This document shows, in pieces, positions 1,621 to 38,158 of a stretch of DNA of 61,472 nt. The position numbers and the translations under genes were made by a program. The stretch's first letter is position 1; the number at the start of each line of letters is the position of its first letter. Under the pieces are notes generated by a model. It saw only the letters and a program-made list of their open reading frames with translations. It was not told where the DNA came from and made no database searches. The stretch comes from Nemertoderma westbladi. Taxonomy: Eukaryota; Animalia; Xenacoelomorpha. The stretch spans positions 1-61,472 of the forward strand of contig JAUCBJ010006934.1 of NCBI GenBank assembly GCA_032718475.1, read 5' to 3'.

Positions 1621-4600
1621 ATGAGTGTCTCAGACAAAGAGGCACTAGAGGACAGCTATGAGACGGCGGCTGGACCGCCGACTGACGATAGCGTAAATAT
1701 TACTGTTGACGACAATGCCGACTATGACGACGCAGCGAGCGACGCTGACGTAAGTGAACAGGAGGACGAGACAGTGACTAGTGAGGAAGAACAACAACCT
1801 CAATTAATAGTATTAGGATCCCCTACCACTACTGTAAGGAAGGACCGCACAGCAGCCCGGACAGAGGTGAGTGATAGGGAGGGTAGTGTAGCAGAAGCGA
1901 GAGCCCGGAGCCCGGTTTCCAGACCTGTGGGTATGGTAAGTGCCATGGTCCCGACGGCTGTAAGGAGTACCCGTAGTTCCCGAAATAATCCTTCAAGTCC
2001 ACCGAGTGTGAGTCAGGTAAGCGAGAGAGAACTAGACATTGCGATAAAGAAGAAACTTCGCGCGCATGCCGGACATATAACTCGGATGACGGACAAGGTA
2101 AGGAAGATGTTAGCTGACTCAGCGAACATCGGGAGGGTAGAGTTAGTAGAGATTAGAAGAGGATATAACTCAGCGTTATTCAAGCAGATGGAGGAGCTTG
2201 CAGTCCTAGCGAAGAAGGCAGTAGAGTCTCAGTCGAGCGACGTGGCGACGAGGATTTACGACAGGGTTTTAGCAGCCTTGTTGGAGCACCGCGAGTTATC
2301 GGAGCGATTCCGACGAGTTAGGACGGAGAACTGGCTGCTATGGGCATCACAAGCGCAGGCGACTCAGGTGAGTGACGCAGAGTTGAGAGACTTAGTGGAG
2401 CGGGAAGAGATCCAAGATAAAGAAGAGCGCCGGTATCAAAGGGAAGTTACTAGCTGGCTGATGCAGAATGGAGTGGTGGTACCAGGCCAGGTGCTACCGA
2501 CGACGGAGAACATCCAACAGAGGACGTTGACTCCACCTGACGATGCATCCAGAGACAGCGGCGATTCCCAGGTTAGTCACGCGCGAGGGAAAGTTATATA
2601 TGCTAGATCCCTTGTTTCTCACAACTCGGCGGAGGAGAGAAGACGCCGACTGGATGAACAACAGGCGGAAGTTTTGCGTGCATCGGAAGCACGGAAGGAA
2701 GCCGAGCGGGAACGGGAGCGCACACGTAAGTTGGACGCGGAGTTATGAGAGTTGGAAGAGATAAGTAAGCGCGAGCGAGCGGAATGCGAGCAAAAGGAAC
2801 GCGAACTCCAAGCCGAGCGCGAGCGCGAGGAACTCGAACGCGAACAGAGAGAACGCGAACTCCAACTTGAATGCGAACGGGAAGCGAAGAAACACGAACT
2901 CCAACTCGAACGCGAACAGGAAGCGAAGAAACGCGAACTCCAAGCCGAACGCGAACGCAAGAAACTCGAACGTGAACAGAAGGAACGCGAGCTTCAACTC
3001 GAATGCGAACGCAAGGAACGCGAACTCGAGATCGAGAAAAGAAGACGCGCATTGTATGAAGAAAAGGAGCGAGTGGAAGAAGAGAGCGCAGCGAGACGAG
3101 CGAGGGAAGAAGAAGAACGTAAACTGGCGCAGTTGGAAAGTGCGAGATTAAGTTTAGAGAGCGAAGAATGGACTAGGAAGGCGAACGAAATCGCCGAGAA
3201 GGGGATGCGAATGATCGAAGAATGTGGGGCGAGTGTAGGGACAGAGTTGCGAGAACTGTTCGCACTGCAGAAGGCCGAACAGGAAGCGAGAACTCCAACT
3301 ATACGCGAGTCGACGACGACCAGAATTCCTATACCCGGTCCAGCTATTACGAGTACACGGATCGCTAAACCGTTCTCTACATATCGTACACCAGTTGGTA
3401 TTAGTGCTTCACCTATCGCCCAGGATCCACGTCATCGGAACACCGCACCACTATACACCGAACGCGACAACGAAGAATTTAGAGGAGAAACTCCGACGGG
3501 ACAAGTATTTGGCGAACCGAACCCGCGGGTTTGGAATACGCGAACGGAGCGCCGACCCAGTTCGACGGAGAACTTCCGGGTTAAACCGGAAGAGGGATCA
3601 TATGAGAGACAGCAGATTACTCAGATAGAGCCGACTATGCAACAGAACCCTAGCCAGGAATTTATTACGAGGGATGAGTTAAGTGCTAGTTTGGCGCAAG
3701 CTATATTGCCGCACATCCAACCTATAACGGACATGCTTAGCAACCTACGGTTAAAGGAAGCAGCCCAGGTAAGAAGTAATTCTAATCCTAGCAGGCCTGA
3801 GTTAGATAAAGTCCAACCTAGTCAACGAGTACGCATATCGGAGGAGACTATACCACATAGACCTCAGTTAAGGACGCCTGTCCCGAATATTCATAATCCC
3901 AATTTCGAAAATTCGGCCGAGAAATTTATACAAGATGCTTGGGTCAGGGCCTCGGCACGCAAACCATCGCGAGCGCTAAGGACTGACACCGAATCAAGCG
4001 ATGAAGAGGAAGACATGAGACGTCAGAAGTCCCGAAACTATAAGGAAAGAAGGACCGACGCGGAGCAGGTAAGTTTGAACCACCGGGAAAGGACCAGACT
4101 TAACAACCCTGCAGAACTAAACCATTTGTTAACCCGGAATGACGCAACCCTTAGGGACATAGGTAAGTTTGCTGCTAGGCAAGGACTCCCGACGCAACAA
4201 CCCCAGAAGTTTATGGGTAACCATAAGCACTGGAGGACCTTCAAAACCTATGTCGACGAGCAGCTAACCAACAGCACCTTTACTCCCAACGAGAAGTTCA
4301 ACTATTTGCTTCAGATGCTCCATCGAGAACCTAGAGCCATTGCTGACAACTTCGTTGGCAATGAAAGGGCATTTGAGTTGGCAATGAAGACGCTTAGTGA
4401 CATCTACGGGAATAAAACCAAGATGGCACAGTCGATAGTAGAAGACTTGGGTAAGTGCGGAAGGATTACAACTCCGTTAGAGCTGTTGAACTTAGCGAAC
4501 GCTATTTCGAACGCATTGGACATCTTGAGGACGGTGAATCTACCTCATCATGGTGATCACGCCAAAGTTTTAAAGAGCGTAATAAGACGTTTAAACATGC

Positions 4601-7600
4601 GTTATCGACAGAAATGGCGCAAATTAGAGAATAAGTTGGAGGGTCAAGGTAAGGTGTTGACACTTCAGCATATTCATGACATGATAGCCACAGACGCAGT
4701 AGCAGAGATGAAATCAAACTTCTCAGAGGAGAATATGAGAGAGTCTAAACCTGTTACCGGTAAGTCTATGGTAAGTTTTGACGATGACAGGACCACTGTG
4801 ACATTTAACTCAGTAGACAGAAATAATTCGAGTACCCCAGCCTTTAGATCAGACTCGCGAGTATGGTCAGGTGAGCGGTTAGATAGACCTAGGTTAAAGC
4901 AACAGGAGTTGCCGGATGGATTTGTAGGTTGCCAATACTGTTTACTAAAGGAGGTAAGATCTGACGATCATAAGTTAGATAGTTGCAGACGGTTCAAAGA
5001 ATTAAATTCGGAACAGAGAAGAGTTCAAGTGCGGACGTTGGACACCTGTTGGGCATGTCTTGCGCCAGGCCATGTACGGCGGCAGTGCCCGAACAGCAAG
5101 GACGGATGCATGGAATGCGGCAGACTACATCACAGGTTGCTACATGCGGATTTCCATACCCCAACGGACCGTTACTTACAGCGAAATCCTCACAGGAAGG
5201 GGAGCAAAGAACCCGTATCGATAAGAAGAAATACGTACACCGGCATTCAGGACGATGGTTATCAACCAGGTTCGTCGGACGAAGATGGCGAGTCGAGCGC
5301 GAGAGAAGTGACCTGCCAAGGTTTCACCGCGGATAGTTCATCGACCAGCGCGCGGACGTATTTATCATCGGCCACGTCGGAAATATTTAGCGTGATTCCG
5401 GTGAAACTTACTGGAGATAAGGGATCGAAGCGAATATATGTGATGTTGGACACTGCGTCCACATTATCTTATATCGACGAGGAAGTGGCGAGAGCCGTTT
5501 CTAGCTTCCAGGACGCCGAGGAAATCCAAATAGAGTTGAAGTCTATGCACGGGGTAGGAGACCTCAAGGGACACAGAATTTCGGTGGAACTAGATTCCCT
5601 ACTTCCGAGAGACCAACATACTCGACAAGAACGGAAAGCTTTGCCATTGGACGGATTTAAGTGTCTAGCTATGAAGGGATTCGGCAGGCAGTTAGGTAAG
5701 GTGCCGCCGATGAGTCCCATAGCACAGGAGTATTTTGACAAGCTCAGAATACCCAGACATCAGGTAGGTTATAGGAATGTTTCTATGTTAATTGGTGCAG
5801 AACAGCTGATCGCACACCAAATATGGGAAACGAGACCAGCTGAGCCGCATGTCAATGGACCACATGCCCATAGGACTATATTAGGTTGGTATACAAGAGT
5901 ACCCATGTCTTATGAGTTTACAGGTGGCGACAAGCCAATAGACAGATACGACGAATTACAGCCTATAACTCAACCACCGTTAGTAGAACCACCAGACATA
6001 GACGAGTTTAGGAGAACCTGTATTGACCACTATAGTGACTTTAGCGAGTCGGACGAGGAGTTGATTCCCGATAATGTTAGGTTGTCGGAACCACTTCACA
6101 ATGACCGGACAGATAGTGAACCCGAGGACTGTTATCAGACCCGTGGGTCTGGTTCAGCGGCCCATGCTACTTATCTGAGTAACGTTTTGACTTATACCAA
6201 TATAGTGGAGGGTCAAGTGGCTAAATATCGAGACCTCGACATTTTCCAATACAGTGAGGAGGAACTACAGAAGGAATTGATACGCCAGGACCTCGAGACA
6301 GGAGCCAGAGCCATCGAATGGCTGGATAGGGACGCAATGGAACCCGGTGGATATGACCTAACCATGTCTACTGATGAGAAGCGGTCGCTGGAGATGATGG
6401 AAGATACCATACGTCTGCTACCGACTGGACATTTTGAAGTTGGAATGTTGTGGCGTCGACAACCACCTAAGTTGGAGAACAACTACAACTTAGCCTTGAA
6501 AAGATTGAACGGAGTAAGGGCTCGGTTGTTGAAGAATCCAGGCATTAGGGAGAAGTATTGCGCCCAGATCAACAACTATTTCGCCAAGGGATTTGCTGGG
6601 AAGGTAGAGGACCCTGACTTAGTGACAGACCAGACTTATTACCTTCCACACCACTATGTGACTCACCCTGACAAGCCTGACAAAGTCCGAGTAGTCAACG
6701 ACTGCGCAGCAGTCTATAGAGGTATGTCCCTGAATTCAGAGTTGATGGATGGTCCCAACCTGAATAATTATTTGATTGGAATACTGTTGCGTTTTAGACA
6801 GCGGCGATTCGCATTTACTTGTGACATCGAGGCGATGTTCCACCAGGTAAGAGCCTGTAAGGCAGACCAGGATAGCCTTCGCTTTCTCTGGTATGAGAAT
6901 GAAGACTTATCCGGCCCAGTGGTTACATACCAGATGTACGTTAGGATATTTGGCGCCCGCGATAGTCCAAACGGCACGCTGTTTGTTCTAAAGAAAACGG
7001 CAACAGCCCAAATTGGTAAGTACCCAGTAGAGGTTATCGAGTCCATCTTGAGAAACTTCTACATGGACGACGGATTGGTGTCCAAGGACACGGCGGAACA
7101 AGCCATAGAAGTGGCTCACGGCCTGCAAGAGTGCTTGGCTACAGGGGGATTTCCTCTGACCAAGTTCACAACGAACTCGGAGGCCCTATTAGAATCGTTC
7201 CCGGTGAAAGATCGCGGGAGCGGAGACATTGAATTGGGGGTAGAACCAATCCCCATGGCGCGAGTACTGGGACTCGCTTGGAATCCGAACACGGATAAAT
7301 TCCAGGTAAGAGTTAGATTTGAGCCCAGTAGCCCAGACAAGGTTTTGACTAAGAGAATTTGCTTATCGACATTGAGTAGACTATTTGACCCGATGAACGT
7401 TATCAGTCCGGTTATATTACAGGCACGAGCGTGCATGAGGAAAATTTGGTTGTCCGACCTAGAGTGGGACGAACCAATATCTCCTATACATGCAAAGCAG
7501 TGGAGGGAGTGGGAAGCCGAGTTGCATCTATTGAAAAATATAGATGTACCCCGTTCCTACTTTCCGAATCAGCTGGTATTTCCAGCTGATCTCGAACTGC

Positions 7601-10014
7601 ATCTATTTAGTGACGCAAGTGACACCGGCTTTGGTATGGTAGCCTACCTTCGCCGAGAGGTAAGTCAGGACAAATTTGAGATGGCTTTTGTGACTTCTAG
7701 ATCAAAGACAATGCCGGTCAAATACATGACTGTCCCTCGTGCAGAGTTACAGGCGGCTGTAGTTTCAGTCGAGGTAAGTAAGCATATAACTGAGGAGTTA
7801 GACACGACATTGACCTTATTCTATTGGACGGACGCATCCTTTGTGTTAGTATACATTGCGGCCGACAATATTGCACTAAAGACATTTGTGGCCAATAGAC
7901 GCGCTCAGATCGTTGACTTTTCGACGAAGGAACAATGGAGACATTGTCCGGGAGTGTTAAACCCGGCCGACATAACTTCGAGAGGTGCAATGCCGGCGGA
8001 ATTCTGTCAGGAAGAGTCGCAAGAGTTTTGGTTGCATGGACCTGATTTTCTAACCAGGACACAGGAACATTGGCCAGAGCGACTAAAGATAGTGACCAAT
8101 CCGATGCCTGAAGATGCAGAAGTCAAAGTGGAGAAAGTCTCTAAGTCAAAGTCTAAAGCCAAACTTAAGTCATTGGAGCGGCCTGAAGAGTCATTGGAGC
8201 GGCCCGGAGACCTGTCAGACCAACAGACTTACGTGACTACTAGGTCCGGAAGGGTAAGTTATGACGTAAAACCACCCTTACAGACTAAACCAGAGTCACA
8301 GTTGGTAAGTGACGGACAGAAAATGACCGACACAATGGAGCCTTTGGTTTCCAAACCTGCGGGTTTGGATTCGAAACTTCCATTAGTTAGCGGACAACCG
8401 TCGCTGGCATTAGAGCCATGTAGTATTTATGATAAATTACTAAATTCGTCTGCCTCTTGGCTGACGATTTGTAAAAGAACTGCGTGCTTAAGCCGATACA
8501 TTTCGTACCTTTGTTTAAAACATTCGGAACATTTGGGAGAACGAACGAGCACTAATAGTGAGCGAATTCAGAAATTGAAACAACCTCTGACAGAGGATGA
8601 GATTGATCAAGCGGAATTAAAGCATTTGAAACATTATCAAATGTGTGCCTTCCCTAAAGAATTCCATCTATTATCGGCTCAACGACCAGTTCTCTATAAA
8701 CCCGTTAGAAAATGGAGTCCATTAATCCATAAGGGTTTGATTTGTCATAGATCGAGAATCCAGACTGTCGACATAAACTCACAGTTCAGGTTCCCAGTGA
8801 TAATCCCTAGTCACCCAATAGAATTGCAAAGAGCGATTCTATGGGATATACACAAGAGGTTGCATCACGCGGGAAAGTTACACTGTTTGTCGGCAGCGAG
8901 ACAGCGATTCATTCTATTGCAGCCAAGCAGGGCAGTAGGCACTATGTACGACGCCTGTCTGGTTTGCAAGAGAGTGAATGCCAGAGTATTGGAACAGGAG
9001 ATGGCTGAACTCCCGGAAGCGATAGTGCAGGCATACGACCCACCTTTTACGAATACAGGGGTGGATTGTTTTGGTCCGATTGAGGCAAAGAGTGGACGGC
9101 TGACCCACAAGCGATGGGGTCTGCTACTGACATGTATGGCTAGTAGAGCCATACACATTGAGCGTGTGGCAGACATGTCGACCAAATCTCTGCTCCTGGC
9201 CTTAAAGAGATTTATGGCCAGGAGAGGACTAGTAAAGGCGTTCTACTCTGACAAGGGTACAAACTTTGTCGGGGGGAATAGCGAGTTGAACGCGGCTCAT
9301 GGAGCGGCACAGAATAAGGAAATTTCTGCAGCACTTTTGCTGCAAAGAATAGAATGGAGATTCAATACTCCAGAAAGTCCTTGGAGAGGAGGAAGTTGGG
9401 AGCGTTTAGTTCGCTCTGTAAAGTAGGCCATTGCCAAAACATTGCCTGTGAACAAACAACATACCGACGACGAGCTGGTCACAGCTTTCATTGAAATCGA
9501 GCATACATTAAACTCGAGGCCGATAGCTATGTTGCCAGACGGTGTTGCATTAACGCCGAATCATTTGCTAATGCAGAGTCCAGCATTTCTTGTGCCGGCA
9601 TCAGAACCCATTAGTGCCGACCTATATAGTCGTAAGAGCTGGAAGGTGACTCAATTTGTGGCGTACACATTCTGGGAATATTGGCGGGAATACTATCTTC
9701 CCACCATATCCACCAGAACAAAGTGGTACAAAACGGTTCGGAGTCTCCAAAGAGGAGATTACGTACTGATAACCGAGCCAATTGTCAAGAGAAAGTATTG
9801 GGAAACAGGAGTTATCTTGCACACACACCCAGACGTGCAAAACATAGTGCGCACAGTCACTGTGAAAATTAGGTGCAAGTGTCCACACCCAAAGAAGTGT
9901 AAAACTAATGGTTTACACACCTTGGACCGACCGGTCCAATATATCGTATTGTTAGAGGAGACACGTATCGAGACGGGAGATTATAATTTGTCTCCTGCCT
10001 CAAAACAGAATTAG
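1621..10014 (+). pseudogene. BEL/Pao Gag-Pol polyprotein (~2797 aa) with in-frame stops at 2746-2748 (TGA) and 9424-9426 (TAG)
   Basis: ORFs 1621-2748, 2752-9426 and 9442-10014 are in one frame. Motifs: DUF1759-like Gag (KFMGNHKHWRTF), Cys/His knuckles (CWACLAPGHVRRQC), protease LDTAS, RT YLPHH/CDIEAMFHQV/FYMDD, RNase H FSDAS/NPADITSRG, integrase HHCC and DDE (VDCFGP, SDKGTNF, WERLV). Confidence 0.95.
2761..3130 (+). repeat. Low-complexity coding repeat (E/R/K/Q coiled coil in Gag)
   Basis: Repeated gaacgcgaactccaa units encoding ERELQ-like heptads. Confidence 0.8.
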
Positions 10015-10713
10015 TGTTGGATGCAACTCACTTCGTATGCATTCCTCGTATGCAAATACAAGGAAATGCATAGGAGCGGGGTTGTGGTGATTTGCGTTGA
10101 GTTTTGTCTGGTGGGTATCAAAAACAAAATTTTATTTTCAAAATTTTTGGAAAATTAGAAAATTTTAAAAATTAGAAGTGAACCCAAGACAATTCCAGAT
10201 GCTGTGTATAGACGCGTTTTGAATTCGTCTATAGATAAACAGTAATTTGAAAAGTCGTGAAGCCTGGAAAATAGCATTTAGAAACCATGGTGACGGCTAT
10301 ATTACGTAGGAGTGTAAATTGAGTTTAGCAACTTCCACAGATTGGTGCCAACAGTGCAACTAAGGTGCTAAAGGTTAGTAGCACCAGAGGCGTACATGGA
10401 CCCCACTCAGTAGTTTGCAGTGATGTGTGATGTTCGATTATCAAACCTGTGGGTTTGGTATAGTCGAGTATTGTGGCTATGGTCCTTTCTAACTACTGTA
10501 GTTTAGTACGAGTAATGGGAGTAGTTTGGGCATCAAAAAGTGAGTTGGTCACGGCCAGTTTATCTCCAAAGTTTTTGCGCTATGCATGGGAATAGGTTAG
10601 AGGATAGTTAGTTAGGAAGAGACGGGATCTAGAGAGTCGAACCTGAACTGCTGGAAGGCAGCGGGGGGGGGGGGGGGGGGGGGGGGTTCGGGAGGTCTGT
10701 CTTTCGGCAACAT

Positions 10714-10732
10714 CTAACTGATTTACCCACAG
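10714..10732 (+). promoter_or_regulatory. Candidate branch point and splice acceptor for a subgenomic accessory-ORF mRNA
   Basis: CTAAC...tttacccacAG about 60 nt before ATG 10792; candidate donor AAG|GTTAGT at 1071-1079 in the leader. Confidence 0.5.
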
Positions 10733-10791
10733 TGTAATTGGTTACGTAACGGAACACTTATTGGGATATATATGTATATACGCGGGGCATA

Positions 10792-13700
10792 ATGGAGAAG
10801 GATATTAGAGCGCAACCGCGCAGAGGATTTACTGCCAGAGAGGAGGCGGAGTTACCATTCGCGCGACCGGGATGTAAAGATTCGAACGTTTACTACCATG
10901 GGCGGTCGGTGATGGAGCTAAATGGGAAATACAAACCCACTTATGATAAGGAATTACGGAGGGAAAGAATGAGAGCGTTGGGGGACCGTATGGAAGTTTT
11001 GCGAAGAGAGTATCGCACTCGGTATCCCTACGACTTCGCTTTAGACGTATGTGACATTAGTGCAGACCCGGACGAGGAGATCGCACGGCTGTACCATATG
11101 AATATGTATTTACGATATGAAGAACCTCTACCTGCAGTCCGCGATCAGTTCGACGGAATGCATCTGTACCGGAGGACTCGAGGCGAGGATCAGGAGACGC
11201 CGAAAATCTTCAGCGTGTACAAGCTGTTCTACAAGTGCGGTGAATGCATGAATAAACAAGACGTGGCGATTCCCGACCGACTAGACGAGCAACATCCAGA
11301 ACCGATATTAACGCGATGTCAAGCTCACCAGTTCCTTAGATATAACGAGGGAGGTTACCCGATGAGCAACCCGATGATCAGTATCGACTTCAGCGGAAAG
11401 CGACCTCCGAGACCCATTACGCCGACCGTTACGACATTAGATCCGTATACGGAGATTAAACCCTGTTCGACACCCAGTTTGATAGAGATGGCAGCGGCCA
11501 TTTCGCTGTACCGAGCCTATAAGGATCTAGAGGCGCGGCGCGGCGCGAAGCGGCACGGGACTCGGGTACCAAACCCGCGGGTTTGGAGCTCTCGAGTCCC
11601 TGGACTGCGTTTACTTCACCTCACCGAGCGAGAACCCTCACTCCTGAGCATCAGGACGACATAGACGCGTTGCGACGGGAGGAGCGAGCGGCGAAGGCGA
11701 AAGAGTTATTCGAGAATAGGATAGCGGAGTACAATAAGACCGCGGATAGACATCAAGAGGAGACGAGGAGAGTGACCGGATTTGTTCCACAGGCCGTATC
11801 TCAACCCCGACCGGTGTATTATTCCGACGGCAACGAACCTGCGATATTAGTAGATCATCCGGAGTCGCGAGAAGCGATAAGATTCTTGCCGATGGTAAGA
11901 ATGGCGGATCATTGGAACGTTGACTGTCTACGGGAAGTTTTATGCGCGAAGTTCTTGCGTGATGTCCCAATGCAGATCACAGATTATGACACATTGGACA
12001 AGATTGGAGCTCCGGGGAAGGAGAGCAAACTGTTTGGATGGTTGGATAAGTACATCAAAGTATGGGTCGCGGTGGCTACATTCCCAGACGACGAGGAGGT
12101 AGACCAGACGTGGCTGAGGAGGAAGGGTTCTTACACCCGATATGATGACCACAAGGCTATCGAGCGCATGTGGACCCCATCAGATGAGATTCAGCGTCAG
12201 TGGAGGAAAACGGAGGAATCACTGCAGGATTGGAGGGTGATGTTCTATGACAATGAAGGAGGGTCCCATCAGGAATGTTTGACTAGCAAGTGCATTCAAA
12301 TTCGCGCAGCCGATGGTGTGACTCATGTGTTTATGCGCGTGAGGGCGGATAGAGAGAGACCGGAGCCCATCATAACGACACAATATCGGAGGGGGAAGGA
12401 TCCTAGGGAGCAGATTTTGGAGGTATGCAGGCGAGGAGGTATGCACGGAGCGGAGCGTATCGACGCCAGGATGCTACCCAAGAAAGTTAGAGAGGCTATT
12501 CTCAACCAAGATTACGTCAAGGTGGGATCAGGAGTCCAGAGCGATTTGGAGAGTGACTTCAACGCCATGACTGATCTGGAAGATAGATTGCCGAGACCGT
12601 TTGTCGACACCAAGCTATTGTTGCTATGGGCACAGGATATTGGAATTTATAGAGAGTATCCCAACTCTGCCAAGACTGGTATGGGCTTCATAGCACACTT
12701 ATTGTATAATTGGGACTTTAAGTTAAAGACGCAGAAGAAATACGAGGAGGCGTATGGCGAATACAACACGCCACCGGGAGCGGAGTTCAAATCCCACTTC
12801 AAGCGGCAAGCGTTAGTGTATTGGAACATTTGCGCGCCACCCCGTGCGTCGCTACAATATTATTTGGTGCTTGAGTCGAACACGGTGACTTGTTTATTAG
12901 CGGATATCGTTGCGCGAGTTTTGAAGCGCCATCCATTGGTATTCGGAGGAGATCAATACGTTCGCTCGAAAGGGGGAATCCAATCCGACGTGATGAAGCG
13001 TTTCTTAACCCCGTTCTTCAACCAATCGTTAGAGAATACGTCGATGGTTAGGAGAGGATTAGCGATATTCGAAGGAGTATATCGACAGAACATCGGAGAT
13101 TTGGGAGACCGACCGTCGATGGAATATCCGACGCCAGAAGCCTTGGAGAAGTGGTTCGGGAATCAAACCCGCGGGTTTGGTACTCCCTTCCACTCGGAGG
13201 CTGATAGACCCGTTAAGGAGGGTTGGCCGGAGACGTTAGTAGAGGTGTTCGGAGTAGATCTTCCGGTGGAGAAGACATATCCGAAACGAACGCGGGAGGA
13301 AATATTGGAGATAGAGGACAAGGGCGAGGATGTTTACATTGTCTGGATCGACAACCGCTGACCGGAGAGGACGACATCGTATTAGACATTGGGAAAGAGG
13401 GAAGTGCGAAACCGATTGGAGACCTCATATACGAGAGGGCCTGGTTTCCACAAGCGCGTAGGTGTAAGTTATGCGGCAGCACAAGGCACAATCAAAAGTC
13501 GTGCGACGCGGTAGTAGAGGCGGCGCATAAGGTCTGCCGTTGGTGTAATGAGACCGACCATTTGTTTCACACGTGCACCGTCTTCATTTCTCAATGCGGA
13601 TATTGTGGAGTAAAGGGACATCGCAGCGCGAGATGTCAGTTGCGAGATGATTCCTTCCAAAACCATAGCGCTAACCTACTTCGGGAGATGTTAGATAAGT

Positions 13701-14293
13701 GGGAGAGTGTGGCCGACTACCACATTCAAGCGCAGATGCGTTGGTTACCATTTAAGGCGGGATACGGTTTCTGGGCAGTAGACCCCTCTCACGTTGCATA
13801 TGAGCCGTATTTACAGTCTTTGCCACAGTATCAAGAGCTCATCCTGACCGCTCAAGACCTTCCACAAAACACTGGAGTTATCGTAGTCCGAGAATACTTT
13901 AGACAGTTAAATATGGATAACAAGTATACTTGGAACTTTGTTGCCATTTGCGACCGGATTACAAAAGGTCTGTTTTCGGAAACTAGAAAAGTGGTACGCG
14001 CACGAGGTGATTGGAGGATGGCGGCTATACAATACCGCAACGAATTCTTGTTGACTCATGTACCAGTGGGGTCATTGACCGCTGAGAGGATACAGGAACA
14101 GAGAATCACAGCGACCACAACGTCGACCGCTGGAGCTCAAGGCTCGCGGAAAGAACCAGGAGGAGAGGTCCAAGACAAGCGTCAAGTCAAGGATGACCAC
14201 TGTCACTCTATTATAGAAGCGCAGAGATTGCCGCGCAAGGCGCAGGGAGCGTCGGAAAAGGCGCGAGTACCGAAAGAGGTGAGGTCTCTATAG
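10792..14293 (+). pseudogene. Accessory ORF of the BEL element: unknown N-terminus + DEDDy-like (WRN/EXD/RNase D family) 3'-5' exonuclease + 3x CCHC zinc knuckle; two frameshifts
   Basis: ORFs 10792-11664, 11583-13361 and 13223-14293 join after removing one GCGCG unit (11533-11547) and restoring one C near 13355. ExoI FYDNEG, LPKKVREAIL..VKVGSGVQSD (ExoII), FVDT, W..PP..LQYYLVLE (ExoIII); CX2CX4HX4C three times at ~13463-13640. Confidence 0.75.
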
Positions 14294-16053
14294 GGTGCTC
14301 GCAACAGGCGGCGGCGGACTCGTGAGGGTCTGGGGGCACGTTAAATCTCCTTTTCAAAGTGCAAGGGAGATACTGATGGCCCTCGTGTCTAGCGAACCAT
14401 GAATCAACATGGTGCCGTGGTTCCGTCTAGTCGGCCTGTTGCCGTACTGCCAGTCCTGTACACAGTAGGGGTGGTGGCATGGCGTGATTTGTGGTGTCAT
14501 GTGGTGTGAACTGTGGTTTGTATGTGGGCGATCAGTGGCAGTTGCTTGGGGCTCGGATGGGTTCCTTTGACCATCAGCTGTTCCGTTTTTTTGATACTAT
14601 ATGTTATTGTCTCCATGTTCAGCTGATTGGTCTTTGAGATTTGTTTGGGCTTTTGAGTTTTCTGTTGCTGTGGGTACGTGAGTACACGTGATTGTGTGTA
14701 TGGCCACTGCGAGTGAGTGTGGGAAACCTTGCCAGTTGGCTCAGTCGCCGCTGGTATTAGTAGGACCATATTTTACTGCGCCCCAGCATACTTTGTGCAC
14801 ACAAAGTTATTTTGCCCTGACGGCAAAATAAAGTACTCTCGACTATCTCTTTCGCGATGTCTCTAGTCGATACAACTAGTCCCTCTCGATTTTGACCCCG
14901 ATTTTGTCTTTCCCGATTATGACCTCTGTGTGTGCATGGTATGTGTCCAATTTGTGTACTTGATATTGTGAACATCTGTTGAGTACACGTGTACAGTGAC
15001 TGGTAAGTGGTTACTTGTTCTTAGCTTTTGAGCAAGACAGTATTGTTTTTCAATACTGCCGGCGAGGCAGGTGAAAATGAGTCAAAATTCCATGTTGGGT
15101 AGCGCAAGCCCACATGGGACAAGACCGTCGGTTAGGCCCAAGGGCGACCTTGGTGCTCGATCGCTATCGACTGGTCCACCTGCCGGTTGACTCTCTGAGT
15201 TGGCTCAATGTACAGTCAGGCCACAGTAAGTTGACAGTAGCCGCCTATCTGGCTACACGTTCGACGAGCTGTGCCGGTGTGATCGGGGAATTGAAAATTG
15301 AACCCGGGAAGCATCGGGCCACCCCCCGGCCCGGTCTGATAATAACATCAGTCGGACTGGCCCCAGGGGTGGTGGAAACACGTCCGCCTCATGGGTGCGC
15401 CTCAGGGAGGAGCCCAGAAGGACGAAAGCGGCAACTGCAGAAGGAAGAGTTGGCGGAAGCGACCACAGGAGCACGACAATTGGGACGAGGCCGAGGTAGA
15501 AGTACCAGCTGGGAGTCTGTCGGGGCTCAGGGAACATCGTCGCCGGTTCCGGGGAGTGACGCCTCACGGACGCCGTCAACAGAGTCTACAGGGGGTAGAC
15601 TGGTGTATCTGGGAAGAGGGCGAAAGAGGGTAGCGAGCCCAAAGAACCCAGGAGCGGGTCGATAATACATTATAGCACAGGGCGACAGACTCTAGATATA
15701 TACATCATCGTCGCTCTGATGTATATTGTAGCATTTTAGAAATATCCGACTAGACTCATATACACTAGTTGAGCTGTTTTGAATTTATATTATGAGAGAG
15801 GCGAAGGAAGTGATTGGGGAGACAAACCTGCGGGTTTGGCTTACTCCTTTCACTTGCCCTAGCAAAAATTTTATATTTGATCTTGTATGTAGTAATCATT
15901 ATGTAGTACGAACGAGAAACAATATTTTGTAAATTTAATTTGTATGTAATAATCGTTAAACAGTGAGAGAGATAATATTTGTAAAATTAATTTGTATGCA
16001 ATTCATTATGCAATATTGTAAACGTTCGAATAAACATTATAAAATAATAAAAA

Positions 16054-16086
16054 CCGACGCGTTTCGAATTTTAATTCGTCTTCAGG
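16054..16086 (-). ncRNA. Minimal hammerhead ribozyme motif (inverted copy)
   Basis: Reverse complement of cCTGAAGAcgaattaaaattcGAAAcgcgTCgg. Confidence 0.6.
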
Positions 16087-16200
16087 TATATAATATTATT
16101 TATATATTATATTATTTTATATTATATATTATATTATTATATTATATATTATATTATATTATATATATTTTATTATTATAATATAATATTATATTATATA

Positions 16201-16233
16201 CCTGAAGACGAATTAAAATTCGAAACGCGTCGG
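16201..16233 (+). ncRNA. Minimal type I hammerhead ribozyme motif
   Basis: CUGAAGA core, stem II GAAUU/AAUUC, GAAA, palindromic ACGCGU stem III, GUC cleavage triplet; stem I is weak. Confidence 0.62.
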
Positions 16234-16443
16234 TTTTTATTATTTTATAATGTTTATTCGAACGTTTACAATGTTAACTCTAGCTACTTTATTATGCAAT
16301 ATCTATAGCAATATTTTGTAAATAGTAGGATTTATAGTATCAAGTATTTAGATTATTTGAAAGGAAATTTATTTTGTTTGTATACATCACCTTATACTCT
16401 TCTACAGTTGGAGGGAAACATTGTATGATTTCCCTTGGAGCGG

Positions 16444-18676
16444 TGTTACGGTATATGGCGCTGTACACATTATTAGCCATTATACAGTATAATATATTGG
16501 TCCATTATGCAGTATAATATATTAGTCCGTTATACTGTACGCAATATTAGTCCGTTATGCAGTATAATATTTTAGATAAGATATAATAGCGAGGTGATAT
16601 TTAGATAGGGAAATTGAAACGCCCATATATTTTGAACTCATCCATTTTGTATAGTATGTAGCCCTACCTACGTAATTTTGTATTAAGATATAAGTAGATA
16701 GTTCCAGGGTAGCAAGTTCAGTTGGACCCTGGATTTTGTGCTTGCTGTTATTAGCTTCGATAGGGCTAGCATCTAGGGACGCTATCCTAACCATTCCGCA
16801 GCCAGGGACATGATCCATTACCATATATGGTAATAATTTGAGGGTTTGGGAAGCAATAGGGCTACAATCCGGCTTTCTAATTGGACTAACTGCTTCCAGG
16901 TTGGTCTAATGCTAGCGCGGACTGGAGAGCCAATAGGAGAGCGATTGCATCACCCTTATTGCATCACCCTTCTCGGATCACCTATAAATTGGCGGTTTGC
17001 TGGTAGAGCTGTACCAATTCCCTATTCCCTCAGTCCTTATTACCAATCTCTATATCACCCTTCACCTACTTTTAGGAGTACAATTTTGTGCGTATTTTCT
17101 GCATTTCTACCTTTGATTAATTTTCTTGAAATGATTTGCAAATTTATAATTTCTGTTTGATTCTTGTTGTGTTTCTCAATCAATCTCAAAGATTACTGCT
17201 AATTACATCATGGAACTGTGATTTCTACCCTTTTGTTAATGGTTCTATGTAATTCTTTTCGACGCAATAATCCTACGGGATTTCTGAGACTGTCAGACTT
17301 GTGATTTGCATGCGCCGCTACGGTAGCTATTCAATCAATGGAGGGCTAAGGTGCCAGTAGGCGGTGGGCTCATCGGGGGGTTAGCGACGAAGGGAGTGCG
17401 GAGGATTCAAAGGCGGGCAACGCTGGCGGGGGTCAACGTTGTGGTCGGGCAATTTGGGCTGTAGGTTGGAGACCGCTCGCTGGTACAGTAATTAGGGGGC
17501 TGATGATCCAGGTTTTGTCTCTATTTAGTATTAGGGGGCAGGAATTGGGTTAGTTAGGAAGCCTAGATGTACCCGGGAGGGGCCTGCATACCTCACAGTA
17601 GATTGCGAATTAGTCAATTGCGAATTATTATGTTGCGAATTATATAATTGCAGATTGTATAATTGCAAGTCGTGCTATTGTGATCTGTGATTGCTGACGC
17701 TGATTGGTGTGTTACTGAAGTGTGCCTATGATTACGAATGCTTAGGTAGGCGCCCCTTTCTCTTTGATTGATTTCTATTTCTTAGTTACAACAAATAATT
17801 ACTGATTAGGTCAAAGTAATACGGCATTTTAGGCTATTACTAGCGAAACCTGTTGTGTAATAAATTAGAATTACGCATTCTGGAACTCTTAGTAATTAGT
17901 ACGCTGTTACATATTTGTGACTGTAATTGATTAGTAAAATTAAGAATTAGTACGCAGCATAGCGGAGAGTAGCTAAGGTAATAATTTAGAGTACCGTAAA
18001 CTATTCACGCTGAGCGGTTATTTGCATTAGCGGGCAATAAGCTAGATCGCAGTAGTCAGTACGCAAGACACTAGTAAATTGCTGGCCTAAAGCCAGCTGC
18101 AGGCAAGTTTAGACCCAGAGCGGTATCACCTACGAAAGACATTGTACTGTACCATTATTCGATATTTTAAATATTCTCGCATTCACACATTCCGTTAGGG
18201 AACCCTCAGTATTCGCGATTAGAAGAGACGTAAGCATTGGCGTATTTCAGTGGTAAAATTAGGCGTAAGAATATACTCTGAGTGCAAAGCCCCTCGCACT
18301 CGTCTTAAGTAAGCTTAGGGAGCCGACTCGGGTTTATTGTTTTGGTTATTCCCGCGTGGCTCATAGATTCGAACAGTTAGCTCTCTATCGAGCGATCGGT
18401 AGAGAAAGGAACAAGCGATTTTGCAGGAGCCGTGTAAATTTAGTAAAATATATTAGCGGACGGTAGATTAGCGCCATCCAACGGTAAGTAGCGGTTTTGT
18501 ATTTAGCAACCTTTACAATTTAGTAATAGCACGCTCCTGATCCCCTTTACTTAACAGTAGAGCAGTCTTTGTGTCTTATTGGTTAGGCGAGAGCTCATTA
18601 GGTTGGCAGAGAGGTATACGGGTATTTGTCTGTTCAACAGTTCTGCTGTTAGTATAGGTGTCGCGGTTGTTTATCA
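16444..18676 (+). repeat. Putative long 3' LTR of the BEL element (truncated)
   Basis: Starts TGTTAC right after a purine-rich tract; CCAAT at ~16930 and TATAAA at ~16983; no second copy in the window to confirm. Confidence 0.5.
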
Positions 18677-18790
18677 CTAGGCTAAGATAACTGGGGAATG
18701 TTCTCAGCCTAGGCTTAGACGACTGAGGAGTGTTCTCAGCCTAGGCTGAGACGACTGGGGAGTCATTTCAAGAGGGAGTTATCTCAGCCT
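18677..18790. repeat. Remainder of the right terminal array of the foldback element
   Basis: Reverse complement of the 1-128 units; continues seamlessly from 647 (ctcagcc|taggctaag). Confidence 0.75.
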
Positions 18791-19729
18791 TGTACACCGG
18801 TAAAACTGAACTCCATCTGCTTCTAAATATTATGCCAGATAACTGTTAATTATATTTTTAATTAAATTTTTATTGATTACAATAATAACAGACATCCATA
18901 ATTCCACCATCCAACAGACATCCAGCATAATCCATCTTCAAATATAGTCGATTATTCTTTTATTTCAAATTAAATTGATGATAAATCAATAATTTTTTTC
19001 AAAATTGTATCACGGCCTCAATGCTAAAGATACAGCTTATATGAGGACAAATTGTAAAAAACTACGATTGAGGATTCAAAAGAAACTTACCAAAGGCCGC
19101 CAATATTATAACTGTCAGCATATAGTTAAACATAGTTCAGTGAGAACAATGTATTTTATTATTTTGTATTTGCTAGAAATAATTGTTTGTAAAATAATGC
19201 ATAATATTATCAATAGTAGTGCATATTATATTAAACAACTGTCATTATGGCTAATTTTATATGCGTTTAAAACCTAATCCAAACAATAACAATCAATAAA
19301 TCACAACACTCAACACTCTAAATTGTATTGCGTATATTTTCTTAAGAAAATTATGGATTGTGTAAAAAGGATTAAACAGGAATTATAATATAACATATGG
19401 TGACAACAAAATAAACACTCTAAATATTGAATGATATTGAATCAATACTGAAAACCATATGTAACCAACCTACTTGCATGGGATAGCAGGGTGAATGAGC
19501 CGATTAGTGAGTGTATGTTTAGACACAGGAGTACTTTCTTATTGTCCTTCATTCATCGTTTCCATTTACATTATTGGTATTGGTATTACGACGACAAGAC
19601 AAATTCTATTCAGAAGTCTTGTATCCAAATTTCGGTTTTTCGGTTCAAATCGGTTTTTTCTTTCTAAAACCAATCTTATTCATAATTGTGGTTCACTATG
19701 TTCTACGCATGTCCTTAGATTATCACAAT

Positions 19730-20350
19730 GATAATGGGGTGTCATGGTAACTCCACCTACTGGCTCCAGAAGTCGAGGAAATCCTGCCAAGTACCTAACT
19801 GATATAGACTTTGCTGATGACTTAGGAGTACTCTCAGAATCACTAGAGGGAGCCCAACGGCTCCTCAGCTCATTAGAACAGGCTGCATCTAGTGGTAGAC
19901 GTTAACTCCAAAAGACCAAAATTTTGACAGTTAACTTTGAAAATCATCAGCAAATCTCTTAGCAAGCAAGTATGCTTGAGCATGTGGACAACTTCTGTTA
20001 CCTGGGATCTTGGATCCGGATCCACATTCACAATAATGCTACGCCGGGTCCACTGTGTCAAGTACAATGCACACATCTCCATCCAGACACTATATAACAT
20101 TGGAGGTATCTCATTGGTTCCCCTAAACTTGACACTAGATCAAAACCGCCTCCGCTTAGCAGGAGATTTGCACAATCTTGTGTTTTAGCAGCCTCATGGA
20201 GAAAATAAGCATGGTGGATAGCCCATGACTTTCGTGAGACGCCTCCTAAAGGACACTGGCCTTAAAGATGCAGATAATCTCACGAAAATCAGGGGGGATA
20301 CGGAGTTGTGGCGGTTCAATTTTGTTGATAAGCCGGCACAGCATTCTTGC
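19730..20350 (+). mobile_element. Degenerate RTE-clade LINE, RT and 3' region
   Basis: Translates PAKYLTDIDFADDLGVLSESLEGAQRLL; 3' part homologous to 21170-21450. Confidence 0.8.
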
Positions 20351-20732
20351 ACTCGACATCCAATGCTTAGCACTCTGCATCATCCGAGGGATGTTGAAAA
20401 ACAGCCGACTGGCTGTATTATAAGCCGTACGTAATTTGGCTTGGGCATTGTCAGAGTAATTTGTCCTTGACCATAGCGCGTTGCCATATATATTTTTACA
20501 TATGCACGGAATAGACGTGCCTTAACAAAATTATTACTAAGAACTGAATTTCCTAATAAGATAATTAATTCTAGCGTAAAGACTACAAGTTTGTCGTTTT
20601 ATATCGTAGTCATCATCTGTGAAAGAATGTAGCACGTGGCCTAAATATATAAATTTATCTACACGTTCAATAGGAGTATCATCTATACAGTACACTACCA
20701 AAATGAGACTTTGCACAACATTTAGGAGAATA

Positions 20733-21035
20733 ATACACGTTCGTGGGGCCTTCGCGCAGCACGAAGTGAGCAAAACCTTTAGCATATGGGCACCATTAAC
20801 GAGTGGTCTGCCGTTAGTTAGAAGTCTTCAACACAATACTCGTCCTCCTCTTGTGCCTCGTTGCGTTCGTTCGTTTTTGACCAAACTTCAGATTCTTTCT
20901 AAACTTTTGACGGACTACATACATACCACCGAGTTATTAGCGATCAAAAATTTACGACGACAGACGACGACGAAGACGACGACGACAGACGACGACAGAC
21001 GACGACAGACAACTCGCCAATTGCACCCATATGCT
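20733..21035 (+). mobile_element. Short non-autonomous interspersed repeat with (GAC)n/GACA microsatellite, HINE/DINE-1-like
   Basis: Near-identical reverse copy at 40786-41140; partial copies at 36464-36798 and 41452-41583; internal inverted repeat agcatatgggcacc/gcacccatatgct. Class is inferred. Confidence 0.6.
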
Positions 21036-21039
21036 GAGA

Positions 21040-21493
21040 TTCGGAAGTCACAGAGAATTAATCGGAAAATTAAGGTCCGATTATTTAGAGCAGCAGTAGT
21101 TCCAGTACTCCTCGAGGAAGTCCATGCTGGGCTCTAACAGCTGAGGACACCAAATCTCTGGATGGCACATTCATACATTGGAGGTGTCTCATTGGTTCCC
21201 CCAAGCTTGACACTAGAACAAAGTCGCCTCCGCTTCGCAGGACATTGCTATCGCCGAGAGGACCAGCCAGTGCATAATCTTGTGCTTTGGCAGCCTCATG
21301 GAGTGAATAAGCATGGTGGACAGCCCATGACTTTCTTGAGACGCATCTTAAAGGACACTGGCCTTAAAGATGCGGATGATCTAGCAAATGTCATAGGTGA
21401 TAGGGAGTTGTGGCGGCGCAATTTTGTTGACAAGCCGGCACAGCATTCTTAAAAATGCAGCTGCAATGCAGCATGCCGATCCTGGTAGTAGTA
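21040..21493 (+). mobile_element. 5'-truncated RTE LINE 3' end with (TAG)n tail
   Basis: KIKVRLFRAAVVPVLL, RLRFAGHCYR; ends gatcctggtagtagta. Confidence 0.8.
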
Positions 21494-24400: not shown

Positions 24401-25309
24401 GACTGCTTAAGTGATAACATACACTTGCTCCGTAATACATGGTATGTTGTCACATACTTGTTGGTAAACTATAAATAATAATTCAAAATAATTCTGAATT
24501 TTAATTAAAATTGTTTTTGAGAATAATAATTTGTTTCAGAAAGGTTATTCAAACAAATACATACAAATCTAACTACTATGTATAACTAGTAATATAACTA
24601 CTAATATTACTGGGTTGAGTGAGGTCGGACAGTGGAAAGAGATCCTTCCAGGCTCCCTGCTTTCCTTCAGTATCACTTTTTGGTCTATATATGTCATAGC
24701 GGGATCCTCCCTCATGTGCCACCTCATTTACAGTTTGCCAGGTAAGTCTTGATTGTTGCTGTAATTGACCAGTTGTAATTTCTTCAATCTAGTCCTGTAT
24801 GTACTTCTCCTGACTGAAGTTGTAGGCCCATTTAAGATCTTCCTTAGCTTTCTCAACCTTGTTGATGTTTTCGGTTGATGGTTGTTCGGTTTTTACTTGG
24901 TAGGCTATCTTAAAATCTTATCTCTTACAAAGTAACCTCAGAGACTTGCCATGGCACATACTGTTTTCGTTTAGGTTTCTGGGGGATATGCCTCTTAGCT
25001 GATTCCTTGTGGGCTGTTATTATATTCTGGTATATTGAATCGGTGGATTGGTCTTCATCCATTGACTGAAGTGCTTCAAAGCGGTTTTGATCTTCTACTG
25101 TGTAAGCATCCTTTACTGCATTGTCAGTTCTGAGTTTCTCCCAGTCATGGTTGATTTGCTTGCTTGTCCTGGATTTGCTGGCTCTCAAACTGAGTCTGAT
25201 CTCTGCAGTGACTTGTTTTGAAGTTTGAGTTTTGAACTTCTACTATCACTATGCAAGCATCCTTTACTGCATTGTCAGTTCTGAGTTTCTCCCAGTCATT
25301 GTTGACTCC

Positions 25310-25873
25310 TTTGCAGGACATTGCTTTCGCCGTGAGGACCAGCCAGTGCATAATCTTGTACTTTGGCAGCCTCATGGAGTGAATAGGCATGGTGGACAGC
25401 CCATGACTTTCTTGAGACGCATCTTAATAATAAATAAAAAAATAATAAATAAATTTTCTTCGGCCGCTAGGCCAGGGATTACGCACAAAGTCTGACGACT
25501 TATTTCCAGTGCGGTCCCCCCAGAACTTTACTCCCCAGAGGAAACTCCAGTACTCATTTAGCTACCACTTAAGGATGCAAGGCAGATATGCGCCCTGGCT
25601 GGTCCCTTTAAGGCATTCGTGCCGAAACGAAAACTGCCCTGGCCCATGTGAGGATCGAACCCACTACCTACAGGAGATGTGAATTCAATGCAACCACTAC
25701 ACCACGGTGGAACCTAGGAATCTTAAAGGACACTGGCCTTGAAGATGCGGATGATCTAGCAAATGTCATGGGTGATAGGGAGTTGTGGCGGCGTAATTTT
25801 GTCGACAAGCCGGTACAGCATTTTTAAAAATGCAGCTGCAATGCAGCATGCCGATACTAGTAGTAGTAGTAGT
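25310..25873 (+). mobile_element. RTE LINE 3' fragment with (TAG)n tail, containing a nested SINE
   Basis: Matches 21235-21493 on either side of the SINE. Confidence 0.8.
25428..25719 (-). mobile_element. tRNA-derived SINE
   Basis: Minus-strand A box TGGTGTAGTGG and B box GGTTCGATCC, AT-rich tail, TSD atcttaa (25421-25427, 25720-25726); empty site visible at ~21345. Confidence 0.85.
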
Positions 25874-29445: not shown

Positions 29446-29614
29446 CAATACATATATTATATTACATATAATTATTAACTTTTATATATAATATATATAA
29501 AGAGATTATTAGTTAGTTATAGTTATATTTTTGAAATGAGTCGAACCAAAACAAATCAAATTATTTTGCACATATTTGTTTACTTTTTGTAATTTTTACA
29601 CCACCTAGCAAGCA

Positions 29615-31843: not shown

Positions 31844-32264
31844 TAACATAGTTGATACAATGGATTTCAAATTGCACTATTACACCCTATCACCAAATCT
31901 GATTTATACAATGAGGTACAGTGATACGGATGTAAGGGGGAAATTCAAAACAGTTGGTTGTTTATGTTGTAGGCCTACTGGTCAGCTATTGTAGGCCTGT
32001 ACGACTGCGCTGTACTACCAGGCTACGGCTCAGTGTCGGCGTTGTCCAACCGAATGGAGGCATCAGACACTGGACAATGAACCGGCCGTTTAGAGGCTGA
32101 CCTACAACCTCGAAGGCAGAGCAGGGAGGAACGAAGCAACGCGAAGTTTAACTTGCGCCGGATCCACGTGACGCATTCCGAGTACCTGACCTCGCGTTTG
32201 TCCGCGAGCTTCTGTCCCAGGCGCTTAACAAACTGGCGCGTGGTCGGCGCCATCCCGCCAATCT
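31801..32264 (-). mobile_element. 5'-truncated CRE-like (RLE) non-LTR retrotransposon insertion
   Basis: Poly(A) tail (T run at 31800-31819); TSD ctggtttgt (31792-31800, 32265-32273); GGMAP..FVKRL..YSECVTWIRRKLNFALLRSSLLCLRGCRS resembles the CRE-clade C-terminus. Confidence 0.85.
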
Positions 32265-38157: not shown

Positions 38158-38158
38158 A

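Follow-up and report, generated by a model that had tools for sequence, protein, structure and literature searches.

A BEL/Pao retrotransposon in a 61,472-nt stretch of the Nemertoderma westbladi genome (contig JAUCBJ010006934.1, the whole of which is called the window here) carries a long gene in the env position, which raises the question of what this gene encodes and what it might do for the element. The gene lies downstream of gag-pol on the same strand, with an exonuclease-like domain followed by zinc knuckles; it accompanies pol in other members of the family, and a short hairpin recurs six times. From sequence comparison, the gene very probably encodes an element-borne homolog of the DEDDy (PF01612-type) exonucleases with three CCHC knuckles.

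The host element and its accessory gene

1621..10014, + strand: BEL/Pao gag-pol, one frame, assigned by Pfam and motifs
10015..10791, + strand: non-coding spacer, in which one of the hairpins (10443) and a G run (10663-10686) lie
10792..11664, + strand: accessory gene piece 1, N-terminal region, no Pfam family matched
11523..13361, + strand: accessory gene piece 2, in which a coiled stretch leads into the exonuclease-like domain (about 12216-12960)
13217..14293, + strand: accessory gene piece 3, three CCHC knuckles (13463-13636), stretch conserved in the homolog P0001, low-complexity tail
14294..16000, + strand: 3' non-coding region of the element, multi-copy
16300..18660, + strand: may still belong to the element, whose G skew it shares; the boundary is a guess

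The domains of gag-pol followed the order gag (DUF1759), knuckle, protease, reverse transcriptase (YMDD), Pao RNase H (Peptidase_A17), integrase and DUF5641. The matches to DUF1759, Peptidase_A17 and DUF5641 scored 39.2, 133.2 and 66 bits, against Pfam cut-offs of 25.4, 22.3 and 23.1. This is the BEL/Pao order of gag, protease, reverse transcriptase, RNase H and integrase, the last four being placed by motifs at 5446 and 7057, by Peptidase_A17 and by a motif at 9058. Two in-frame stops interrupt gag-pol in the window copy (2746-2748 and 9424-9426), and at the second of these every covering contig from the public runs differs (45 from run X1, 31 from X3 and 1 from X4). The family is multi-copy, and the contigs of the public runs include both gene-bearing and gene-deleted copies. 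The spacer contains a candidate branch-point (CTAAC, 10714) and an acceptor-like site (CAG ending at 10732), and we infer splicing into this candidate acceptor.

The ends of the element were less well defined. The start of a 3' LTR may be marked by a purine-rich tract near 16408-16420 and the TGT behind it, but no matching 5' LTR was found in the window. Neither blastn (word 7) nor local alignment against shuffles detected a direct repeat shared by the 5' and the 3' flank, and the two LTRs with target-site duplication that mark BEL/Pao elements were not detected in the window copy, which is probably truncated. No primer-binding site could be assigned, and a search of the window yielded no tRNA genes. 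An element of more than 17 kb is plausible, but without an identified LTR pair this length is unproven. Other copies carry several internal deletions that end at 15392-15431 in the 3' region, where a 194-codon frame at 15081 had neither a Pfam match nor a hydrophobic segment.

ORF analysis of the window divided the accessory gene among three overlapping + strand frames (10750-11664, 11523-13361 and 13217-14293). From the first ATG of the long frame at 10792 to the stop at 14291-14293 it spans 3,502 nt, or about 1,165 codons. A score of codon usage, with the element's own pol as the training set, was positive at 10750-11499 in frame A and at 11650-13299 in frame B; in frame C (13300-14199) it was mostly positive (five of six windows), with a value of -0.5 at the knuckles. 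The coding signal thus switches frame at both overlaps. Piece 1 also contains a C-x2-C-x23-C-x2-H motif (11236-11328), possibly zinc-binding.

The window copy of the gene is decayed, and other copies differ from it at both breaks. At the first break, contigs of other copies carried an indel in all four public runs. At the second, the local sequence of the window had a depth of 251 in X1 and 53 in X3, compared with about 25,000 nearby, and the spanning contig of X5, a run guessed to be RNA, showed one gap. Five of the contigs listed, lying within 12060-12803 and diverged by 13-17% across the exonuclease, contained no gaps, which fits with a kept frame. The highest 19-residue hydropathy values of the three pieces were 0.84, 1.34 and 0.76, and the N-terminus was polar. 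Neither the signal peptide nor the transmembrane anchor of an envelope glycoprotein was found at this maximum of 1.34, and the gene is therefore not env.

Several observations link the gene to the element. Its codon usage correlated with that of its own pol (0.56), as opposed to the other BEL pol (-0.04) or a neighbouring gene (-0.11), and its strand skew matched that of its own gag-pol. Both pol and the accessory gene were covered in all four runs, and contigs tiled the interval between them (9160-10154, 10162-10576 and 10566-10939 from X4; 10725-11060 from X1), with no single contig among those of the four runs spanning pol to the gene. The tiling, the codon usage and the six-copy hairpin together indicate that the accessory gene is part of the element. 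An earlier note on this DNA had joined the three frames into one protein of about 1,165 residues, held it not to be env and regarded it as the element's own gene in the env position. The span from ATG to stop and the switching coding signal bear out the first point, the hydropathy and polar N-terminus agree with the second, and the hairpin, codon usage, skew and tiling uphold the third against an unrelated nested insertion.

The exonuclease-like domain and the zinc knuckles

Four motifs were located in the central domain: FYDNE (12243-12257), VKVGSGVQSD (12516-12545), FVDT (12600-12611) and W..PP...QYYLVLE (12822-12875). The candidate catalytic residues are D 12249, E 12255, D 12543, Y 12861 and E 12873. 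One homolog of the accessory protein, P0001, an unnamed singleton cluster, was found among 1,835,955,588 representatives (E 3.7e-6). It has the same layout of an exonuclease followed by three knuckles, with 27% identity to the window protein over the exonuclease part (pairwise E 4e-15) and 25% over the knuckles (E 2e-7), and it retains D62, E64, D130, Y229 and E233. The ExoI D-x-E was present, with FYDNE aligning to SIDVE of P0001 by motif, outside the profile-aligned part, and the ExoII Asp and the following DT motif were also present in the window domain. At ExoIII, the position of which was counted by hand, Y-x3-E was found in both proteins in place of Y-x3-D. The D-x-E, D and Y are therefore common to the two proteins, with Glu replacing the last Asp in both.

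Distance from the known families was evident in the profile searches. The window domain matched no Pfam or NCBIfam family even at E 10, and P0001 matched PF01612 at E 0.2 (11.9 bits, below the Pfam cut-off of 23.6). A profile was built from 57 bacterial PF01612 domains and searched against 54 targets: P0001 ranked first (E 2.1e-5), and the window piece ranked fourth (E 0.075), behind two frames without known relevance. When the two-row alignment of window protein and P0001 was compared with the bacterial profile by hhalign, a probability of 86.9% and a score of 43.6 were obtained over 81 columns, covering the ExoII region only; 60 column shuffles reached at most 21.0, and the reversed alignment 14.8. 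The ExoII Asp was set on a column invariant in all 57 bacterial domains. The assignment of ExoI and ExoIII is by motif matching, outside the profile alignment, and the global mode of hhalign gave a meaningless alignment. Bacterial sub-profiles were weak: hhalign gave 55% with RNase D, and 0.1-5% with the remaining three.

In the ESM Atlas, the window domain matched PF01612 clusters at 0.90, and P0001 matched first a Euglenozoa cluster with PF01612 and zf-CCHC at 0.86, values that lie within the range some shuffled proteins reach; the second match of P0001 was EXD1-like (0.77, a low score). In both searches, all of the ten best family-bearing matches shared the family or clan. The two single-sequence AlphaFold models had a mean pLDDT of 35.5 and 33.2, and Foldseek returned no match for them at E 0.001. 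As both models failed, the exonuclease fold is inferred from sequence profiles only.

PDB sequence searches with the window protein gave no exonuclease among the matches; weak matches to rotavirus VP4 (E 0.026-0.83) were rejected as chance. P0001 matched retroviral nucleocapsids and Air2 via its knuckles. Word-index protein searches returned nothing but P0001 itself from its 1,303 candidates, and for piece 2 they returned no match from 7,134 longer candidates and 1,858 of similar length. Scans for related loci confirmed no relatives in viral contigs (0/79 and 0/67; 0/2 for pol) or metagenome contigs (0/53 and 0/182), and the two-row profile found none in 301 bacterial genomes; one phage record, at E 2, was likewise not confirmed as a relative.

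A motif search placed three C-x2-C-x4-H-x4-C knuckles on the + strand:

13463-13504, + strand: CCHC knuckle
13535-13576, + strand: CCHC knuckle
13595-13636, + strand: CCHC knuckle

They lie in tandem, C-terminal to the exonuclease, in both the window protein and P0001, and are followed by a stretch (E.W...RW...GF) also conserved in P0001. The earlier note had described motifs in DEDDy order with E for the last D, and all four were recovered as quoted. Its proposal of a DEDDy exonuclease gained from the remote homolog, the Atlas searches and the ExoII profile match, but not from Pfam, the cut-off of which was not reached, or from ExoIII with its Y-x3-E. The three knuckles that it called AIR1-like are present, whereas the likeness amounts to a sub-threshold Pfam match (AIR2-like_ZnK4, E 0.22).

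Dispersed hairpins and possible roles of the protein

A 16-nt hairpin apex was found at six sites, compared with 0.02 expected, and at none outside 3519-15839:

3519..3534, + strand: copy 1, gag region; one mismatch, weak extended stem
8353..8368, + strand: copy 2, between RNase H and integrase
10443..10458, + strand: copy 3, spacer; one loop mismatch
11571..11586, + strand: copy 4, accessory gene
13165..13180, + strand: copy 5, accessory gene
15824..15839, + strand: copy 6, 3' non-coding region; one core pair broken

The hairpins carry a tetraloop, their apex occurs in all three reading phases, and the extended stems differ in sequence. In the core stem, each of the three one-sided changes leaves a G-U pair on the + strand, double-sided changes affect 4 of the 12 consensus pairs, and all six hairpins fold more stably on the + than on the - strand. 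Rfam returned nothing for the hairpin, and three sub-threshold miRNA-like matches on a foldback.

The best explanation, which we hold at slightly less than an even chance, is that the third gene of this BEL/Pao element encodes a likely active 3'-5' RNA exonuclease with RNA-gripping knuckles. Catalytic activity in itself appears somewhat more likely than not. Against it stands the Glu in place of the last catalytic Asp, and Egalitarian is a case of such a domain functioning with no catalysis (PMC13186709). The protein would be expressed from spliced RNA via the acceptor-like site at 10732, and catalysis would proceed through D-x-E, D and Y, with Glu replacing the last Asp. As in TbRND, the three knuckles may hold single-stranded RNA so that its 3' end is passed to the active site. 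Given the existence of deleted copies, the protein would act in trans and be optional for copying. Its most likely job, at rather less than even odds, would be to trim or destroy RNAs of the host silencing and decay routes; the targets could be small guide RNAs, or tails added to the element RNA, and the spread of the family would be helped.

The hairpin features might suit an RNA-binding adaptor that is not a working nuclease, recognising the six hairpins and exporting, localising or packaging the unspliced genomic RNA. One apex repeated in every phase on differing stems, with G-U pairs kept, double-sided changes and a more stable + strand, is in keeping with this reading, as is the acceptor-like site before the gene. 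There are also precedents: Egalitarian (Egl) binds stem-loops, including the I-factor signal, without its catalytic residues (PMC13186709), and CERV, made from a spliced element mRNA, exports genomic RNA (PMC10309623). We nevertheless consider an adaptor unlikely. Four carboxylates and the Tyr are retained in the window protein and in P0001 alike, although a dead domain would have no need of them. Nothing links the hairpins to the accessory protein; their binding partner could be Gag or a host factor. In a folding scan of 422 windows, the motif lay in only 2 of the top 25, and copy 6 has a broken core pair.

A quite improbable alternative to the RNA exonuclease proposed above is an enzyme acting on the element's own replication intermediates, which would proofread, or trim the ends of cDNA or RNA, while an exceptionally long genome is reverse transcribed. 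DEDDy enzymes include DNA proofreaders (PMC5408684), the DEDDy domain of Dada has been proposed to process 3' ends (PMC3706591), and the element would exceed the 15-kb upper bound used for known BEL/Pao elements, should the G-skewed block reaching about 18.6 kb be part of it. However, the length of the element is not established, the gene is separate and not fused to pol, and part-deleted copies of the gene occur in several runs, though service in trans is possible. Of the proposed functions, proofreading has the least support, given the many copies that lack parts of the gene and the knuckles, which suggest that RNA is bound.

There is only a slight chance that the motif resemblance is accidental, or that the domain is a decayed, non-enzymatic relic in some other nucleic-acid-binding accessory protein. 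No curated family threshold was reached, the fold models failed and a single homolog is known, but the profile score was twice that of the best shuffle, two Atlas searches led to PF01612, and the motif order and residues are common to P0001. It is highly improbable that a host retrogene or other mobile element unrelated to this BEL/Pao copy became nested in it and gave rise to the gene, for although no contig spans pol to the gene and no LTR pair delimits the element, the common hairpin lies inside the gene and on both flanks, codon usage and skew match gag-pol, the junctions are tiled with both parts in all four runs, and the gene lacks flanking terminal repeats.

A more speculative scheme, in our judgement doubtful, would combine nuclease and hairpins in self-recognising RNA surveillance. 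The hairpins would be a 'self' mark protecting or escorting the element RNA, in a Rev/RRE-like arrangement built on a DEDE nuclease, while unmarked RNAs such as host silencing guides were trimmed; the gene would be part of an exonuclease gene pool across BEL/Pao, gypsy-like and Penelope-like retroelements.

Comparison with known systems

Juno and Vesta are gypsy-like elements. In these LTR elements of bdelloid rotifers, a DEDDy (RNase D-like) ORF3, shared with Athena/Terminon, lies downstream of pol (PMC5408684). As in the present element, it is a separate exonuclease gene that replaces env, has no transmembrane segment and has an altered catalytic motif (PMC5408684). The motif of ORF3 is DEED (PMC5408684), compared with DEDE here. 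Juno and Vesta are not BEL/Pao, a name not found in the text of PMC5408684, whereas the host here is; nor was a CCHC array found described there for ORF3, in contrast to the three knuckles here. The accessory gene, at about 1,165 codons and with a long N-terminal region, is also unlike ORF3.

The domain order of a 3'-5' exonuclease followed by a tandem CCHC array is that of TbRND, the mitochondrial RNase D of Trypanosoma brucei, the knuckles of which bind RNA and the overexpression of which depletes small guide RNAs (PMC7797062). TbRND is cellular; its DEDD is intact, and its four knuckles lie near the domain (PMC7797062). The first Atlas match of P0001, the Euglenozoa cluster, is similarly built, although it counts as a lead only. 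The protein described here is instead retrotransposon-borne, its last Asp is changed to Glu, and its three knuckles follow a long linker.

EXD1 and Mut-7 are animal PF01612-type host proteins, in a group that acts in RNA transport or small-RNA pathways. Both are named in PMC5408684. The exonuclease-like domain of Egalitarian is likewise an animal PF01612-type domain, but in a host gene, and it works without its catalytic residues (PMC13186709). CERV, an accessory protein of the C. elegans LTR element Cer1 acting on the element's own RNA, is the model for the adaptor alternative, and the abstract on it mentions no exonuclease (PMC10309623). Dada is a mobile element with a captured DEDDy domain, as here, but it is a DNA transposon with the domain inside its transposase and DEDD intact (PMC3706591).

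No report of a BEL/Pao exonuclease was found in the literature searched, which does not establish its absence from print. New here are the BEL/Pao host, the DEDE motif, the triple knuckle and the dispersed hairpins. The earlier note had placed the novelty in architecture and clade; the BEL/Pao host appears to be new, but the concept is less so, given the rotifer DEDDy ORF3 (PMC5408684) and the exonuclease-CCHC order of TbRND (PMC7797062). The presence of gene-bearing and gene-deleted copies in one family permits a population-level test of the gene's worth, and the locus supplies a defined protein, together with a candidate RNA ligand, for studying how animal retrotransposons counter silencing or manage very long RNAs. 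Retrotransposon exonuclease accessory genes are in print mainly from rotifers; the present element would extend such gene capture to another retrotransposon group, and as a high-copy BEL/Pao case it suggests that these captures recur across retroelement groups.

The accessory gene and its copies

The accessory gene lies in the env position of a BEL/Pao element.

Features of the window
1621-10014 (+): BEL/Pao gag-pol, a single frame with two in-frame stops
between gag-pol and the accessory gene: spacer of 0.8 kb
10792-14293 (+): accessory gene, three overlapping frames
1526-1597, 6998-7069, 7538-7609, 8906-8977, 9158-9301, 10022-10093: many strongly folding local RNA segments, unrelated in sequence, within pol and immediately past its stop (z < -4, on only 15 shuffles each)
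27015-28725: 59-nt inverted repeats without mismatch, separated by 1,593 nt; a probable non-autonomous DNA transposon
29609-35814 (+): two long intron-free frames with a Peptidase_C14 caspase-like domain, WD40 and many fibronectin type III (fn3) repeats
38130-39023: partial repeat, part of the fn3 region duplicated at 98% identity, past a 68-nt satellite
46549-61470 (-): second BEL/Pao cluster, its pol running off the window end, then gag-protease frames duplicated at about 3.7 kb spacing; the first element's hairpin motif is absent

In gag-pol, DUF1759, Peptidase_A17 and DUF5641 exceeded the Pfam cut-off, and the protease, RT and integrase motif positions followed the BEL/Pao order. The known range of BEL/Pao elements implies an animal host. 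The gag region is split by an in-frame TGA at 2746-2748, which may reflect decay or programmed readthrough. A pol-trained codon score shifted frame at both overlaps of the accessory gene, which is therefore one coding region with two breaks, as the earlier note had proposed. No hydrophobic segment was present in any of the three pieces, so the gene is, as also claimed there, not env.

Contigs of four public runs, one of which may be the window's own source, were aligned to 8000-16000 (three runs labelled organism A, from three studies, and one organism B). The first-break indel was present in all four. Runs X1 and X3 almost lacked the window's sequence around the second break, and a contig of run X5 that spans this break had one gap. 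The late pol stop was seen in the window copy alone. Because other copies differ at the breaks and at this stop, the window copy belongs to a multi-copy family and is decayed. In other copies, internal deletions (within 10939-15431) have taken out segments of the accessory gene or of the 3' region, for example 11603-14009, 12062-15392, 12944-15406 and 14265-15431, with right ends clustering at 15392-15431; the gene is thus dispensable in cis.

The accessory ATG is preceded, at a distance of 60-80 nt, by a CAG and a CTAAC that resembles a branch point; they would fit expression from a spliced RNA, as for other ORF3s. The stop of a short upstream frame (10773-10794) overlaps this ATG (TAATG), and a small indel just upstream of that site distinguishes many other copies.

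Linkage to the element and its extent

A hairpin apex of 16 nt was found at 3519, 8353, 10443, 11571, 13165 and 15824, and at no other site of the 61-kb window (expected 0.02). With simple repeats masked and one AT-rich word set aside, no 11-mer other than that of the hairpin was repeated three times within the element. The six copies occupy all three phases, their extended stems differ in sequence, and in every copy the + strand folds more stably than the - strand. All three one-sided core changes retain G-U pairs on the + strand, which suggests that the hairpin is an RNA signal. Five of the six loops match the YNMG tetraloop pattern.

Codon-usage correlations of the accessory gene were 0.56 with the pol and 0.50 with the gag of its own element; the other BEL pol gave -0.04, and the neighbouring genes showed no correlation either. 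The pol-spacer-gene junctions were tiled by contigs, with no single contig spanning all of them. Hairpins inside the gene and on either side, codon usage and tiled junctions together indicate that this real feature is element-borne, and make an unrelated nested insertion unlikely.

Cumulative GC skew climbs from the window start to about 18 kb and is flat beyond; non-coding parts up to 18660 have the element's skew and 18800-27000 do not. No LTR pair was found for the element within the window. Counted from where gag begins to the far end of the 8000-16000 stretch used for mapping, the element therefore spans at least 14.4 kb, and perhaps about 18 kb; one survey took 15 kb as the upper bound for known full-length BEL/Pao elements (PMC3118150). 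Foldbacks near the element ends (439-766 and 16012-16275, each with 88 nt between arms) are either real rearrangements or assembly artefacts. Palindromic short repeat units in inverted orientation (1-128, 588-647 and 18670-18790) bracket the 18-kb block. They resemble the termini of a small non-autonomous DNA element; the BEL/Pao copy would have inserted into it or next to it.

The exonuclease-like domain

The central domain had no match in curated family libraries, and single-sequence structure predictions were uninformative on its fold. An exhaustive search among 1.84 billion proteins returned one homolog, P0001 (648 aa, E 3.7e-6), which aligned to the central domain and, separately, to the zinc-knuckle region plus a conserved stretch behind it; the exonuclease-plus-knuckle architecture is therefore old. 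Both proteins have the D-x-E, the ExoII Asp, the DT motif and W..P...Q..Y-x3-E. With a profile of 57 bacterial PF01612 (3'-5' exonuclease) domains, P0001 ranked first among 54 targets (E 2.1e-5) and the window piece no higher than fourth (E 0.075). Profile-profile alignment of the window-P0001 pair with bacterial PF01612, limited to the ExoII region, gave 86.9% and a score of 43.6 (best of 60 shuffles, 21.0). ESM Atlas pointed to PF01612 for both, with scores of 0.86-0.90, as leads and not proof.

Taken together, homolog, shared motifs, profile tests and ESM Atlas make a PF01612-type domain, and hence an exonuclease identity, likely. Because Glu replaces the ExoIII Asp in both proteins, the domain is not a strict DEDDy member; since a carboxylate and the Tyr are retained at 27% identity, a site that is active, or that at least binds metal, is favoured. 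The three knuckles have the ordinary C-x2-C-x4-H-x4-C form, in which an 'AIR1-like' type and a retroviral one cannot be told apart.

Possible function and known systems

The accessory protein might be an active exonuclease that trims RNA 3' ends in trans, its substrates being RNAs of silencing or decay and its exact target uncertain. This role is tentatively favoured because the closest mechanistic model is TbRND, in which CCHC knuckles bind single-stranded RNA that the exonuclease trims, and whose overexpression depletes small guide RNAs (PMC7797062). The main rival, an adaptor that would bind the hairpins and serve in export, transport or packaging, modelled on Egalitarian (PMC13186709) and CERV (PMC10309623), is considerably less probable. 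Proofreading or end processing by the exonuclease seems rather unlikely. A non-exonuclease protein is improbable, and nested insertion is the least credible reading.

A literature search, of incomplete coverage, found no published BEL/Pao exonuclease accessory gene. Sequence look-ups yielded no look-alike for this gene or for P0001. DEDDy domains occur in Dada DNA transposons (PMC3706591), and the rotifer LTR elements Juno and Vesta have DEDDy ORF3s with a DEED motif, which they share with Terminons (PMC5408684, PMC6431247, PMC5718144, PMC6338049). The accessory gene may work like these rotifer ORF3s and resembles TbRND in protein layout, but by motif and clade falls outside both families. Exonuclease ORF3s have published precedent, and the homolog support here is thin; the DEDE site (Glu for the last Asp) and the repeated hairpins give this case added interest.
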